A stretch of 64,000 nucleotides of DNA from Escherichia coli (GCF_013315695.1 NZ_CP054353.1), one strand, 5' to 3'; shown: positions 71-26,349, numbered from the stretch's first letter. The notes: generated by a model not told the origin, from the letters alone. Made by a program: numbers and translations.

Positions 71-127
71 CACGTTATCAGGCCACCGCGTTGGCCTGAC
101 TGATTTCTTAATGAAAGGAACTGATTT

Positions 128-1156
128 ATGGGATTGTTTACGACCCGCCAGTTACTCGGTTATACCGAACAAAAAGTTAAATTCCGTGCGCTGTTTCTGG
201 AGCTGTTTTTCCGCCGTACGGTGAATTTCCACACCGAAGAGGTGATGCTGGACAAAATTACCGGAAAAACGCCGGTGGCGGCCTATGTCTCCCCGATCGT
301 TGAAGGAAAAGTGCTTCGCCATCGCGGTGGTGAAACCCGCGTGTTACGTCCGGGCTACGTCAAGCCCAAACACGAATTTAATTACCAGCAGGCGGTTGAG
401 CGCCTTCCTGGTGAAGATCCGGCTCAGCTGAACGACCCGGCCTACCGTCGTCTGCGTATCATTACCGATAACCTCAAACAGGAAGAGCACGCCATTGTCC
501 AGGTGGAAGAAATGCAGGCGGTGAATGCCGTGCTGTATGGCAAATACACCATGGAAGGGGATCAGTTTGATACTGTCGAGGTGGATTTCGGGCGCTCTGA
601 AGGAAATAACATTGAGCAGGCTGACGGTAAAAAATGGTCTGAGCAGGACCGTGATACGTTTGATCCGACGCATGATATTGACCTCTACTGCGATCAGGCC
701 AGCGGCCTTGTGAATATCGCCATTATGGACGGTACGGTCTGGCGTCTGCTGAATGGCTTTAAGCTGTTCCGCGAAAAACTGGATACCCGTCGCGGCTCAA
801 ATTCACAACTCGAAACGGCAGTGAAAGACCTGGGGGCGGTGGTGTCCTTCAAGGGGTATTACGGCGATCTGGCCATTGTGGTGGCGAAAACGTCTTATGT
901 GGCAGAAGACGGTACCGAAAAACGTTATCTGCCGGAGGGCACACTGGTCCTGGGGAATACGGCAGCAGAGGGCATTCGTTGCTATGGTGCCATTCAGGAT
1001 GCGCAGGCGTTGTCCGAAGGTGTGGTGGCCTCTTCCCGTTATCCGAAACACTGGCTGACTGTGGGCGATCCGGCCCGTGAATTCACCATGACGCAGTCCG
1101 CACCGCTGATGGTGCTGCCGGATCCGGATGAGTTTGTGGTGGTACAGGTGAAATAA
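128..1156 (+). CDS. E: Major capsid protein, lambda gpE family
   Basis: 342 aa; translation strongly resembles lambda gpE (YVSPIV...RGG motif region and overall colinearity). Confidence 0.9.
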   Translation: MGLFTTRQLLGYTEQKVKFRALFLELFFRRTVNFHTEEVMLDKITGKTPVAAYVSPIVEGKVLRHRGGETRVLRPGYVKPKHEFNYQQAVERLPGEDPAQLNDPAYRRLRIITDNLKQEEHAIVQVEEMQAVNAVLYGKYTMEGDQFDTVEVDFGRSEGNNIEQADGKKWSEQDRDTFDPTHDIDLYCDQASGLVNIAIMDGTVWRLLNGFKLFREKLDTRRGSNSQLETAVKDLGAVVSFKGYYGDLAIVVAKTSYVAEDGTEKRYLPEGTLVLGNTAAEGIRCYGAIQDAQALSEGVVASSRYPKHWLTVGDPAREFTMTQSAPLMVLPDPDEFVVVQVK

Positions 1157-9469: not shown

Positions 9470-9473
9470 AAAG

Positions 9474-9515
9474 AATAAAAAAATCCCGCAGTGATCGCGG
9501 ACAGGAACTGCGGGA
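9474..9515 (-). terminator. Hairpin with adjacent A-run (terminator-like when read on minus strand) in the I-J intergenic insert
   Basis: TCCCGCAG ... CTGCGGGA 8-bp stem, 16-nt loop, preceded on + strand by AATAAAAAAA. Confidence 0.35.
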
Positions 9516-9680
9516 GAGTTACGAAGATTAAGTGTAAGGAATTATTCTTATATCACGACAAAAAAATTAACGCAGAGAAATTATACGCGCCACAGTCAGT
9601 TTGTGAAAATGTGAAGATATTCAGAATTTTTATGCCATTACCGGTTTTAACCAACAGGATTATCGGTGGGCATGAAAGAA

Positions 9681-9715
9681 AACCCCGGTATCTGCTGATA
9701 CCGGGGTTTCTCTTT
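9681..9715. terminator. Perfect 11-bp palindromic hairpin flanked by A-rich and T-rich tracts (bidirectional terminator-like)
   Basis: AACCCCGGTAT-ctgctg-ATACCGGGGTT followed by TCTCTTT. Confidence 0.35.
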
Positions 9716-9812
9716 AGCATGGCAGAAATGTGTTTCATGCTTTTCGGGCGAAGGATATCCGACTTCTGTACGGAATGGCAAGTGGCGGTTAATTTATTCA
9801 GGGGAAGGCTGT

Positions 9813-12800
9813 ATGGGAAAAGGTGGCGGTAAGGCACACACGCCTCGTGAGGCGAAGGATAATCTCAAATCCACGCAGATGATGAGTGTGATTGATGCGA
9901 TTGGTGAGGGACCGATAGAAGGTCCGGTGAAGGGACTGCAGAGTATTCTGGTGAACAAAACCCCGCTGACGGACACGGACGGTAATCCCGTGATACACGG
10001 TGTGACTGCGGTCTGGCGTGCCGGGGAGCAGGAGCAGACACCACCGGAAGGCTTTGAGTCCTCCGGAGCTGAAACCGGACTGGGCGTGGAAGTGACGAAG
10101 GCAAAACCGGTGACGCGCACCATTACGTCCGCGAACATTGACCGCCTGCGGGTTACCTTCGGGGTGCAGTCACTGGTGCAGACCACGTCAAAGGGCGACC
10201 GTAATCCTTCCTCTGTCCGGATTCTGATTCAGTTACAGCGTAATGGCCGCTGGGTGACGGAAAAGGATGTCACCATTAACGGCAAGACCACCTCGCAGTT
10301 CCTGGCCTCGGTGATTCTGGATAATCTGCCTCCCCGGCCCTTTAACATCCGGATGGTCAGGGAGACGGCGGACAGCACCACGGACCAGCTGCAGAATAAG
10401 ACGCTGTGGTCGTCATACACCGAAATCATCGATGTGAAACAGTGCTACCCGAACACGGCCATTGTGGGGCTGCAGGTGGATGCGGAGCAGTTCGGCGGCC
10501 AGCAGATGACGGTGAACTACCATATCCGCGGTCGCATCATCCAGGTGCCGTCAAACTATGACCCGGAAAAACGCACGTACAGTGGTATCTGGGACGGCAG
10601 CCTGAAACCGGCATACAGCAACAACCCGGCCTGGTGTCTGTGGGACATGCTGACTCACCCGCGCTACGGCATGGGAAAACGTCTGGGGGCGGCGGATGTG
10701 GACAAGTGGGCGCTGTATGCCATCGGGCAGTACTGCGACCAGACGGTCCCGGATGGTTTCGGGGGGACCGAGCCGCGGATGACCTTTAATGCGTACCTGG
10801 CACAACAGCGTAAGGCGTGGGACGTTCTCAGTGATTTCTGCTCTGCGATGCGCTGTATGCCGGTATGGAACGGCCAGACGCTGACGTTCGTTCAGGACCG
10901 TCCGTCGGATGTGGTGTGGCCGTACACCAACAGCGATGTGGTGGTGGATGATAACGGCGTGGGTTTCCGCTACAGCTCCAGTGCCCTGAAGGACCGGCAC
11001 ACGGCAGTGGAGGTGAATTACACCGACCCGCAGAACGGCTGGCAGACCTCCACGGAACTGGTGGAAGACCCGGAAGCCATACTGCGCTACGGACGCAACC
11101 TGCTGAAGATGGACGCGTTCGGCTGTACCAGCCGCGGTCAGGCCCACCGTGCCGGGCTGTGGGTGATAAAGACCGAACTGCTGGAAACGCAGACGGTGGA
11201 TTTCACGCTTGGGTCACAGGGGCTGCGTCACACACCCGGTGACATCATTGAAATCTGTGATAACGACTATGCCGGGACCATGACCGGCGGACGTGTCCTG
11301 TCCATCGATGCCGCCAGCCGTACCCTGACGCTGGACCGGGAGGTGACACTGCCGGAGACCGGCACGGCCACTGTTAATCTGATTAACGGCAGCGGTAAGC
11401 CGGCGAGCGTGGCCATCACCGCACACCCCGCGCCTGACCGGATACAGGTCAGCACCCTGCCGGATGGTGTGGAGACATACGGTGTGTGGGGACTCTCCCT
11501 GCCGTCACTGCGTCGTCGCCTGTTCCGCTGTGTCTCCATCCGGGAAAACACGGACGGCACCTTTGCCATCACGGCGGTGCAGCACGTACCTGAAAAAGAA
11601 GCCATCGTGGATAACGGGGCCCGCTTTGAGCCGCAGTCAGGCACCCTGAACAGCGTTATCCCACCGGCAGTGCAGCACCTGACGGTGGAGGTGAGCGCAG
11701 CTGACGGCCAGTATCTGGCGCAGGCTAAATGGGACACGCCGCGGGTGGTGAAGGGCGTGCGCTTCAGTCTGCGCCTGACCAGTGGTAAGGGAACGGATGC
11801 CAGACTGGTGACCACCGCCATCACCGCAGACACGGAGCACCGTTTCAGCGGCCTGCCACTGGGGGAATACACCCTGACGGTGCGGGCCATTAACAGCTAC
11901 GGCCAGCAGGGCGAACCTGCGACCACCACCTTCCGGATTAACGCGCCTGCAAAACCCGCCACCATTGAGCTGACGCCGGGGTATTTTCAGATAACGGCGG
12001 TACCGGTGCTGGCGGTGTATGACCCGACGGTGCAGTTTGAATTCTGGTTCTCAGAAAAACGCATCACGAACACGGCACAGGTGGAAAAATCTGCCCGTTA
12101 TCTGGGGACCGGCAGTCAGTGGACTGTCCAGGGGAGCCGGATTAAGCCGGGGACGGATTTCTGGTTTTACGTGCGAAGCGTCAACCTGGTGGGAAAATCT
12201 GCTTTTGTGGAAGCCAGCGGGCAGCCCAGCAATGATGGTGAAGGGTATCTGGAAATTTTCCGGGGGCTGATAGATGAGACGCTTCTGGGGCAGGCACTGA
12301 AAGAGCGCATTGATGCTTCAGCGCTGCGTACGGAGGTCACGCAACTGGAAGAAGATATCCGTCAGCGGATGGACACGGATATCGCAGAAGTGACCCGGAA
12401 AATCGGGAAGGCGGAAAACAGCCTCACGCAGCTGGTTGCGAAAAAGAATGAGGACCAGACACTGGCCATCGCGCAGGTGAGCCAGAAAGTGGACCGGGTG
12501 AGCAGTGAAATCTCACAGACTGTCAGCCAGGGGCAGTCAGAAAACGCCCGACAGATAGCACAGGTCCGCCAGTACGTGGATAAAAAAGGGAGTGAAATTA
12601 CCTCGACCACGGATAAAAAGCTGGGTGACCAGGCCGTGACCATACAGCAAATCCAGCGGGTTCAGTCAGACACGCGCAATGAGCTGAATGCCATGTATAT
12701 GCTGAAGGTGCAGAAAACAAAAAACGGTATTCCCTATGTGGCCGGGATTGGCGCGGGGATTGAGGATGTTGATGGTCAGACCCTGAGTAACATTCTGCTG

Positions 12801-13505
12801 CAGGCCGATCGCATTGCGATGATTACCCCGGAGAACGGCAACACCACGCCGCTGTTTGTGGCGCAGGGGAATCAGCTGTTCATGAACGACGTGTTCCTGA
12901 AGCGACTGTTTGCGGTGAGCATCACGTCATCCGGCAATCCTCCGACGTTTTCCCTGACGCCGGATGGCAGGCTGACAGCCCGCAATGCGGATATCAGTGG
13001 AGCCATCACGGCGAATACCGGCACGCTCAATAATGTCACCATTAACGAGAACTGTGTCATCAGAGGGAAACTGTCTGCAAACCAGATTGAAGGCGATCTC
13101 GTTAAAACAGTGGGTAAGGCTTTCCCCCGTGACTCCCGTGCACCGAAGCGTTGGCCATCAGGAACCATTACCGTCAGGGTTTATGACGATCAGCCGTTTA
13201 ACCGGCAGATTGTTATTCCGGCGGTGGCTTTCAGCGGTGCCAGACATGAGCGGGAGAACAGCGATACTTATTCGTCATGCCGCCTGATAGTGAAGAAAAA
13301 CGGTGCTGAAATTTATAACCGTACCGCGATGGATAATACGCTGGTTTACAGTGGTGTTATTGATATGCCTGCTGGTCGCGGCCACATGACGCTGGAGTTT
13401 TCTGTATCAGCATGGTGGGTAAATGGCTGGTATCCCACAGCAAGTATCAGCGATTTGCTGGTTGTTGTGATGAAGAAAGCCACTGCAGGCATCACGATTA
13501 GCTGA
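9813..13505 (+). CDS. J: Host specificity / central tail fibre protein J
   Basis: 1230 aa; N-terminal 850 aa and C-terminal 270 aa colinear with lambda gpJ; extra coiled-coil segment in between. Confidence 0.95.
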
Positions 13506-14225: not shown

Positions 14226-14236
14226 GTGGAGTGGAT

Positions 14237-16303
14237 ATGGCAGCAGTAAAAATCTCAGGTGTGCTGAAAGATGGTGCGGGAAAACCAATACAGAACTGCA
14301 CTATTCAACTGAAGGCAAAGCGTAACAGCACCACGGTACTGGTGAACACGGTGGCCTCTGAAAATCCGGATGAAGCCGGGCGTTACAGCATGGATGTTGA
14401 GTATGGCCAGTACAGCGTCACCCTGCTGGTTGAAGGTTTTCCACCTTCACATGCCGGGACCATTACCGTCTATGAAGGTTCCAGACCAGGTACGCTGAAT
14501 GATTTTCTCGGTGCCATGACGGAGGATGATGTTCGTCCGGAGGCACTGCGCCGTTTTGAGCTGATGGTGAATGAAGTGGCACGTCATGCCGGAGCGTCAT
14601 CACAGAGTGCAGCGGCGGCAAAGAAATCCGAAACGGCAGCAGCCTCATCGAAGAATGCGGCGAAAACCTCAGAAACGAATGCAGCTAACAGCGCACAGGC
14701 GGCAGCGGCCTCGCAGACTGCATCGGCAAACTCCGCGACAGCAGCCAAAAAATCAGAAACCAGCGCGAAAAATAGCGAGACAGCCACAAAGGCCAGCGAA
14801 AAAAACGCAAAATCCAGCCAGACGGCAGCGAAAACCAGTGAGACGAATGCCAAAGACAGTGAAGCCAACGCAAAGGTGAGCGAAACAGCGGCGGCGAACT
14901 CGGCGAAAGCATCGGCAGCAAGCCAGACGGCAGCAAAAGCAAGTGAAGATGCTGCCAGAGAATACGCAAACCAGACAGCAGAGCCGTACAGATATGTTTT
15001 ACAGCCGCTGCCGGATGTGTGGATACCCTTTAATGATTCGCTGGATATGATTACGGGCTATTCTCCGGGTTATAAAAAAGTGAAGATTGGTGATAATGTG
15101 GTTCAGGTTGCCAGTGATAAACAGGTTAATTTCAGTCGCGCATCAACGGCAACATATATCAACAAATCTGGCGAACTGAAAACGGCGGAAATTAATGAGC
15201 CACGATTTGAGTGTGATGGCCTGCTTATTGAGGGGCAAAGAACGAACTTCTTCCCGAACAGTACAGACCCTTCGAAGTGGAATAAGTCAACTTCACTGGA
15301 CGTTACAGAAACAGGCACAGATAGTTTCGGGTTTAATTATGGCCGGTTTGTCGTACAGGATTCGATTGTTGGTACAAGTAAAGCGCATACCATTATCGGA
15401 CTGTATTCGAGTACCGGAGGGGTTGATACTTCAGGGGACGAAAAGCATGTAACTATATCCTGTCGGGTAAAAAGTGAAGTTGATAATATCGCCGTTCGTA
15501 TTTTATTTGAACATTATGATGGGGAGGTAAGGACATCAATAGGAGCAGCAAACCTGAACCTTACCACCCGCATAATTAGCAAGACAGGTCAGACAAGCCG
15601 TGTTACAGCAAGGTCTGTTAAGGATGATGCAACTGGCTGGATATTTTTTGAGGCTACATTAAAAGCAGATACAACAGAAAATACGGTTGGTGGTTTTGTC
15701 CAGTATTCTCCGGATACAGGGCAGATGGTTGCATCAGGGGATTATCTCGATGTAACCACTCCACAGATTGAGGCTGGTACAGGCGCATCATCTTTTATTG
15801 TTACGGGGACGGCACCGGTAACGCGGGCAAGCGATATGGTTACAGTTCCGATTAAGAATAATCTTTATAATCTTCCTTTTACGGTTCTTTGTGAGGTACA
15901 TAAGAACTGGTATAAAACGCCAAATGCAGCACCGCGTGTTTTTGACACATACCGGCATCAGGCAGATGCGGGGATCGTAATGGGGTTTGGTTCATCAGGT
16001 GGGTACGACGGTTTTCCGTATTGCGATATAGGTGGTTCAGACCGACGAATAAATGAAAATGCCGGGCTGGAAAAAATGCTTATTGGTATGCGGGTAAAGT
16101 CCGAACGGTCCACATGTGTAGTCAGTAACGGTAAGTTAAGCAGCGAAACTAAAACCAAATGGGAATATATCCGGAGTACAGCAACCATTCGCATTGGTGG
16201 ACAAACTACAGCAGGATTACGCCATTTATTTGGGCATGTGAGGAATTTTCGTCTCTGGCATAAAGAGCTAACAGATGCGCAGCTTGGGGAGGTTGTGGAG
16301 TGA
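14237..16303 (+). CDS. stf: Side tail fibre protein, lambda Stf-like N-terminus with divergent C-terminal receptor-binding domain
   Basis: First 120 aa match lambda Stf (AVKISGVLKDG...), then Ala/Ser/Thr-rich SETNA/AAKxSE repeats, then about 400 aa with no lambda counterpart; start set at ATG 14237. Confidence 0.75.
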   Translation: MAAVKISGVLKDGAGKPIQNCTIQLKAKRNSTTVLVNTVASENPDEAGRYSMDVEYGQYSVTLLVEGFPPSHAGTITVYEGSRPGTLNDFLGAMTEDDVRPEALRRFELMVNEVARHAGASSQSAAAAKKSETAAASSKNAAKTSETNAANSAQAAAASQTASANSATAAKKSETSAKNSETATKASEKNAKSSQTAAKTSETNAKDSEANAKVSETAAANSAKASAASQTAAKASEDAAREYANQTAEPYRYVLQPLPDVWIPFNDSLDMITGYSPGYKKVKIGDNVVQVASDKQVNFSRASTATYINKSGELKTAEINEPRFECDGLLIEGQRTNFFPNSTDPSKWNKSTSLDVTETGTDSFGFNYGRFVVQDSIVGTSKAHTIIGLYSSTGGVDTSGDEKHVTISCRVKSEVDNIAVRILFEHYDGEVRTSIGAANLNLTTRIISKTGQTSRVTARSVKDDATGWIFFEATLKADTTENTVGGFVQYSPDTGQMVASGDYLDVTTPQIEAGTGASSFIVTGTAPVTRASDMVTVPIKNNLYNLPFTVLCEVHKNWYKTPNAAPRVFDTYRHQADAGIVMGFGSSGGYDGFPYCDIGGSDRRINENAGLEKMLIGMRVKSERSTCVVSNGKLSSETKTKWEYIRSTATIRIGGQTTAGLRHLFGHVRNFRLWHKELTDAQLGEVVE

Positions 16304-25801: not shown

Positions 25802-26349
25802 TATGTATTCCCTTGTGATTATAATCTTCATGAATATATCAATAAGTGCTGTTATCCAAAAAAAGCACATTTGGATACTATTCTATGAAGTTCATTTTAT
25901 TTTAAAGATTACATGTAACAAATGTATTTAAAAGATTTCAAAATGTTTCTAATCTATTTAATATAATTCATAGTTATGAATTCTGAATATAAATATTCAC
26001 GAATATTATGGATATATATCAATATGTTATGAGTTGATCGAAAAGATAGGGAGTATCAATGATTGTTGCGCTAAACGGCTGGTGTGATCTCGCGCACATT
26101 AATGAAGGCATAAAAAAAAGCCGGCATCATGCCGGCCCAAAAAAATATAAACAAGACGATAAAAGGCTAATAACGGAGGCATGATGACACAGAAAAATAA
26201 AAAGGTATAATTGTAATCAGTACCAATATATTGATTGAATGAATTAATAAAGCCGAAATCAAAGATAAATAACATCGTTCAAATCGATTTTTCCTGTATT
26301 CACCGCCGTTGCGCAAAATTTATCTATTTGTTCAAAAAATGATTGAGTC

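Follow-up and report, generated by a model that had tools for sequence, protein, structure and literature searches.

The closest described relative of the protein considered here is the tip attachment protein of phage lambda, gpJ, in which cryo-electron microscopy resolved the domains FNIII-1/2, AHS, CSF and RBD (Ge & Wang 2024, PMC11101478). In lambda the AHS, or alpha-helical shaft, consists of three bundled helices and clamps the three FNIII-2 domains from their lower side. When LamB binds, the upper helix of the shaft, residues 809-840, is remodelled, residues 841-861 become two beta-strands atop the prism and the clamp is loosened; the helical shaft is part of the trigger for DNA ejection (PMC11101478). 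Long trimeric coiled-coil shafts have also been solved in the J-like fibre of the F-pyocins (2026 preprint). Here we analyse the J gene in a stretch of 64,000 nucleotides from Escherichia coli (GCF_013315695.1, NZ_CP054353.1; hereafter the window, with positions counted from its first letter). Its product carries a block of 101 residues with no counterpart in lambda J, which we believe, with somewhat more confidence than doubt, to be a rigid enlargement of the alpha-helical shaft.

The window protein is a lambda-type tip attachment protein J. It aligns end to end with lambda J at 67% identity overall and is collinear with it except for the one block (MAFFT alignment); phmmer matches it to 8iyk_J with E = 0; six J-specific Pfam models fall on it in order, each above its curated cut-off; and the gene order around it, L-K-I-J-lom-stf, is the usual lambdoid one, as read from the open reading frames of the window and the annotation of lambda and of a twin locus. 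That RefSeq twin locus, in E. coli AVS0790, is 99.9% identical, and a gpJ coding sequence of equal length is annotated there. Residues 817-943 are the sole long stretch of the protein matched by no Pfam model.

The first-pass annotation, made from the DNA of the window, had put this J at 1230 residues against about 1132 in lambda, and both figures are correct (open reading frame list; NC_001416, 1132 residues). We aligned four J proteins with MAFFT, those of the window, lambda, Stx2a_1447 (1157 residues) and PhiR49_2 (1232 residues). The lambda row shows a single gap of 101 columns facing window residues 838-938; the remaining length differences from lambda are three single-residue gaps in the window protein, and 101 less 3 gives the 98 residues by which 1230 exceeds 1132. 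The same junction was found by phmmer against PDB sequences, in which query residues 1-836 match lambda 1-838 and the query from 939 onward matches lambda from 840 onward. Given the one gap of 101 columns and the phmmer junction, the extra residues are one discrete insertion; a distribution of the extra residues along the protein was not seen. The insertion lies where the annotation had expected it, between the conserved body and the C-terminal receptor-binding part, as judged from the Pfam matches and the alignment. That C-terminal part had also been called conserved, which holds for its fold (Pfam Ig_GpJ_C) but not for its sequence, only about 43% identical to that of lambda. The interval singled out at the time, nucleotides 12200-12720 or residues 797-969, contains the block and nearly all of the helical shaft.

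The block sits at the junction of lambda's upper shaft helix (809-840) and the refolding segment 841-861. Both ends of the shaft can be aligned with lambda, over about 25 residues at the N-terminal and about 30 at the C-terminal end, and the equivalent of lambda 841-861 is conserved in position, at about residues 940-960 of the window protein. In the same four-protein alignment, the J of Stx2a_1447 is without 73 of the 101 block residues, and that of PhiR49_2 has them all.

Structure prediction and periodicity analysis both point to helix across the block. A monomer run of AlphaFold2 (AF2) for residues 800-1100, from an alignment of 19 rows, returned helices at 809-821 and 824-833 and an unbroken helix at 836-957, with a ten-residue block-mean pLDDT of 82-90 over residues 840-929. 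When three copies of residues 830-1010 were joined by 70-residue Gly-Ser linkers, each copy was helical at 835-962, giving three equivalent helices with a block-mean pLDDT of 78-95 over most of each helix and a pTM of 0.47, versus 0.25 for the monomer, a result consistent with a three-helix bundle. A single unbroken helix of about 122-128 residues is therefore what these models predict. In a Foldseek search with the monomer model the only significant matches were the lambda AHS-CSF entries 9wca, 8xcj, 8xci, 8xck and 8jvm. The pseudo-trimer model had no significant match in Foldseek, a search by which parallel and antiparallel packing are not distinguishable; parallel trimeric packing of the shaft is what we infer from homology to lambda.

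The block contains no proline and four glycines. Its hydrophobicity power spectrum (residues 838-938) peaks at 3.65 residues with a power of 143, and none of 2000 shuffles reached that value, the shuffle maximum being 129. A strict a/d heptad register, with its period of 3.5 residues, is not kept in the shaft, where the best register shifts every 20-30 residues or so. The term 'heptad-rich', applied to this stretch in the first-pass annotation, thus stands as far as helical character is concerned (AF2, lambda homology) and fails as to strict heptads; because the heptad register is unstable and the period is 3.65, 'hendecad-like' describes the shaft better, with a super-repeat of 29 residues. 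A unit of that length equals 11 + 11 + 7 residues, or eight helical turns at 3.625 residues per turn, and together with the period of 3.65 this implies little or no left-handed supercoil. Non-heptad coiled coils of the hendecad type, with 11/3 periodicity, occur in tetrabrachion-type and adhesin stalks; the likeness of the window shaft to them is one of periodicity only, and we do not claim homology.

Comparison of residues 820-970 with themselves revealed excess similarity at offsets of 11, 22, 29 (z = 6.5), 58 (z = 4.3) and 87 residues. Three consecutive 29-residue units, U1 to U3 (Table 1), align with one another, with pairwise BLOSUM scores of 36-47, against a 99.9th percentile of 25 in the null distribution. 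By the same measure the terminal unit that follows them is not significantly similar to U1-U3, with scores of 2-11. The length of 101 residues equals that of the three units, 87 residues, with some 14 more, which lengthen the helix on its upstream side. The 87-bp stretches that encode the units share no more than 44-49% of their nucleotides, and a run of Tandem Repeats Finder over 12100-12850 detected no repeat. A recent slippage array in the DNA is ruled out by these two results, and the duplications must be old.

Lambda gpJ (PDB 8JVM and 8XCK, closed; 8XCJ/8XCI, open) and the window protein belong to a common family and share the order FNIII-2, shaft, beta-prism and Ig-like receptor-binding domain. 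They differ in the spacer from FNIII-2 to the beta-prism, 152 residues in the window and 51 in lambda, the window protein having, between its clamp and switch helices, three extra 29-residue units and about 14 further residues. The J proteins of Stx-converting and other O157 lambdoid prophages, for example Stx2a_1447, are 82-96% identical to the window protein after the shaft. The spacer of Stx2a_1447 J is 79 residues, with one 29-residue unit homologous to U3 and without U1, U2 and the 14-residue extension. More distant is the central fibre of the F-pyocins (F7 CFP; F2 PA0641, PDB 25vf), a J-like protein with a phmmer E of 3.8e-124 over residues 3-695. F-pyocin fibres have a trimeric coiled-coil shaft of 163-178 residues upstream of the beta-prism, comparable in length to the window shaft. 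However, there is no detectable sequence similarity between the two shafts, and that of the pyocins is heptad-based, carries the motif SxSxxMxxLxS and docks side fibres.

Based on these observations, we think the balance tips towards the block being an enlarged alpha-helical shaft of J, a rigid extension of about 15 nm between the conserved clamp and the conserved switch. By analogy with lambda, three chains would form a parallel, nearly unsupercoiled three-helix rod. At 1.5 A per residue the 101 residues would add about 15 nm to the fibre, which agrees with the suggestion in the first-pass annotation that the expanded segment could change fibre length, and the distance from the tail tube to the receptor-binding domain would grow by as much. 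Both functional ends would be retained, the clamp beneath the ring of FNIII-2 domains and, beside the beta-prism, the switch. Because O-antigen hides receptors in the outer membrane from J proteins of the lambda kind (PMC12312913), the most plausible benefit would be reach: the receptor-binding tip could cross the O-antigen or capsule layer around wild E. coli cells and arrive at an outer-membrane protein. Shaft length would change when repeat units recombine unequally, in steps of 7, 11 or 29 residues that keep the helix in phase, and J genes would exchange the shaft module separately from the receptor-binding domain.

Several points weigh against this proposal. The alignment across the insert is shallow, with 5-6 near-identical rows, and AF2 operates there close to single-sequence mode; according to the F7-pyocin study, shallow alignments favour the coiled-coil state (2026 preprint). 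The composition is odd for a stable coiled coil, with Val+Ile+Thr at 26%, Leu at 6%, Gln+Ser+Thr+Asn at 34% and four glycines. The parallel or trimeric arrangement of the chains is taken over from homologues, and the benefit of reach through O-antigen is something that we purely infer. We found no host-range or fibre-length data in the literature, and searches on shaft-length polymorphism, PhiR49 and coiled-coil insertions in J returned nothing relevant.

The same odd composition, in which beta-branched and polar residues abound and leucine is scarce, suits a different proposal, namely that the added units are metamorphic and that on receptor binding each would become a beta-hairpin extending the beta-prism, so that the fibre shortens and energy is supplied for opening of the tail tip. 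There are precedents for such an enlarged fold switch. The lower shaft helix of lambda, 841-861, turns into two beta-strands on LamB binding (PMC11101478). The F7 pyocin converts a trimeric coiled coil of 163 residues into beta-prism on target binding, which powers ejection, and 21 of 24 central fibres from siphophages are predicted to undergo similar switches (2026 preprint). In the window, the shaft adjoins the beta-prism that could seed the conversion, glycine-containing turn-like motifs (KIGK, SQGQ, DKKG, KLGD) recur at positions 9-12 and 22-24 of the units, and a unit of 29 residues would have room for a pair of strands, each about 11 residues long, with two turns. However, both AF2 runs (monomer weights) give confident helix, U1-U3 do not resemble the terminal unit that overlaps the known switch, and lambda and T5 are without an extensive switch according to the F7 authors (2026 preprint). 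Nor is the pyocin motif SxSxxMxxLxS enriched in the window shaft, with two full matches versus 1.8 expected, both at residues 942-960 in the lambda-homologous terminal unit and none in U1-U3, whereas distant long-shaft homologues do show enrichment, with 10-15 matches versus 5-6.6 expected. Because this motif scan is crude and of limited power, lambda's own proven switch segment scoring zero in it, we do not discard the fold switch but regard it as unlikely.

Measured with two small hidden Markov models in 270 database proteins and the four phage J proteins, the spacer from the end of FNIII-2 to the start of the prism falls into classes of 51 (lambda type), 79 (Stx type), 105, 137, 152 (window and PhiR49_2), 188, 212, 232 and 250 residues, and it reaches 307-620 residues in distant homologues. 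Alignment of the window protein with its closest longer relatives gave gaps of 7, 11, 29, 29 and 58 residues. The small indels, those of 7, 11 and 29 residues, do not throw the hydrophobic core out of phase; larger length differences are uninformative on phase, nearly any large number being a sum of 7s and 11s. One database protein with a spacer of 250 residues, P0122, contains an exact tandem copy of one 29-residue unit, and expansion is therefore still going on. In another, P0131 (spacer 129), the repeated stretch includes the start of the beta-prism; we did not count it as a length class, as it is probably an oddity of assembly or duplication.

Among database proteins with a complete C-terminus, at least four types of receptor-binding domain occur together with the 152-residue shaft, and in the same set the receptor-binding domain of the window type occurs with shafts of 51, 79, 152 and 188 residues, so that shaft length assorts as an independent module. 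The window protein itself is a recombinant, with a Stx2a-phage-like front and a PhiR49_2-like rear. Its residues 1-800 match Stx2a_1447 J at 94-100% identity, and from about residue 750 to the C-terminus it matches PhiR49_2 J at 98-100%, the latter being lambda-like upstream of about residue 700-750. In 50,697 phage records the block was present in two, PhiR40_1 and PhiR49_2, which both name E. coli ECOR13 as host and have an identical block; their existence shows that viable phages can use the allele. A tblastn search of phage records with the insert alone returned only these two, and no donor protein outside J was identified. An exact copy of the long-shaft segment is also found in a 5'-truncated J pseudogene of E. 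coli B-1109 (NZ_CP117971.1, 2190871-2193726), in a prophage remnant directly downstream of genes for a DNA cytosine methyltransferase and an NgoMIV-family restriction endonuclease.

Among 5426 complete E. coli genomes, the lambda-type shaft allele was found in 2586, the Stx-type in 745 and the window-type in 715. This co-existence of three alleles at high frequency, the many length classes, the free assortment of shaft length with receptor-binding type and the age of the repeats (44-49% nucleotide identity) would all be expected if any in-phase length were tolerated and the long allele, of no consequence for host range or triggering, had spread only because recombination linked it to successful modules next to it. 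Yet the 152-residue class is 96-100% identical over many genomes and the indels respect helical phase, so that there is structural constraint at least, and if the reach of the sole organelle for irreversible binding changed by 15 nm, adsorption would hardly stay unaffected. We consider such neutrality improbable, less likely than the fold switch. Less likely than the fold switch, too, and in our view very doubtful, is that the added helix is a docking platform to which side tail fibres or some further accessory protein bind, for although the coiled-coil shaft of the J-like PA0641 carries three docked side fibres in the F2-pyocin (2026 preprint) and a full-length stf gene follows lom in the window, the side fibres of Ur-lambda are joined to the tail tip by a collar and not to the shaft, the shaft, identical in PhiR49_2 and the window, recombines with many different contexts, and no co-varying partner was identified.

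Table 1. Features of the J gene and protein of the window, in order of position; the extent of the shaft is a prediction.
Feature	Residues	Nucleotides	Strand	Basis or remark
J gene (tip attachment / central tail fibre protein)		9813..13505	+	Intact open reading frame, 1230 aa
FNIII-A_GpJ	86-207			Pfam
Phage-tail_3	331-498			Pfam
Ig_J	609-712			Pfam
Ig_J_second, second FNIII/Ig domain, upper anchor of shaft	714-816	11952..12260	+	Pfam PF24489, E = 5.5e-40
Whole alpha-helical shaft	~809-962	12237..12698	+	AF2 helices; corresponds to lambda gpJ 809-861
101-residue block without lambda J counterpart	838-938	12324..12626	+	Alignment; ends fixed to within a few residues
Unit U1	857-885	12381..12467	+	Scores 36 and 38 against U2 and U3
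Unit U2	886-914	12468..12554	+	U2-U3 score 47; 12/29 identical residues, 43/87 identical nucleotides
Unit U3	915-943	12555..12641	+	Counterpart of the single unit in Stx-phage J
Terminal unit	944-972	12642..12728	+	Homologous to lambda 845-873; overlaps equivalent of 841-861 switch
Phage_Tail_Tip, beta-prism 'central straight fibre'	944-1071	12642..13025	+	Pfam PF09327, E = 1.9e-24
Ig_GpJ_C, C-terminal receptor-binding Ig-like domain	1100-1230	13110..13502	+	Pfam PF12421, E = 4.8e-38

The surroundings of the gene provided some further observations. The spacer between I and J (9470-9812) is 343 bp long, with a GC content of 0.41-0.47 versus about 0.6 in its flanks, and it is about 91% conserved but unannotated in PPompW, Stx lambdoid prophages and the RefSeq twin locus. 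In lambda and PhiR49_2 the I-J spacer is only 60 bp, and in Stx2a_1447 the I-J gap is occupied by an IS66 element. The minus strand of the window spacer carries a promoter close to consensus, TTCACA-16-TATAAT (9607->9580), and, at 9501->9485, a hairpin with a T-run that resembles a terminator; the two outline a candidate small RNA of about 100 nucleotides (fold z = -2.1) with no match in Rfam; a second strong hairpin lies at 9680-9715. Downstream, the side tail fibre gene (14231-16303, plus strand) encodes 690 amino acids, with a long low-complexity repeat region of Ala, Ser, Thr, Lys and Glu at about residues 120-245 and an extreme AT skew, up to 0.70, especially at 14550-14950. At 26113-26203, on the minus strand, is a full-length match to rseX, a chromosomal Hfq-binding small RNA (Rfam RF01401, 90.8 bits), which suggests that the window runs out of the prophage into the host chromosome.

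The block is a common natural length variant of a known domain and one step in a modular series within the J family; it is neither exceptional nor a new kind of system, but an ordinary and common allele of a well-known protein. The interest of the series lies in what the protein does, since the central fibre decides whether a lambdoid phage reaches and irreversibly binds its outer-membrane receptor. In-phase shaft lengths in near-identical J proteins offer a natural series for testing reach through O-antigen or capsule, and triggering, and this series could guide the engineering of phage or tailocin fibres. There is also a slim chance that the 29-residue units are hairpin-forming metamorphic modules, which would make the long-shaft alleles intermediates between the 21-residue switch of lambda and the 163-residue switch of the F-pyocins. 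If so, the series of 51, 79, 152, 188 and 250 residues would tune both reach and stored trigger energy, in the genetically tractable background of lambda.

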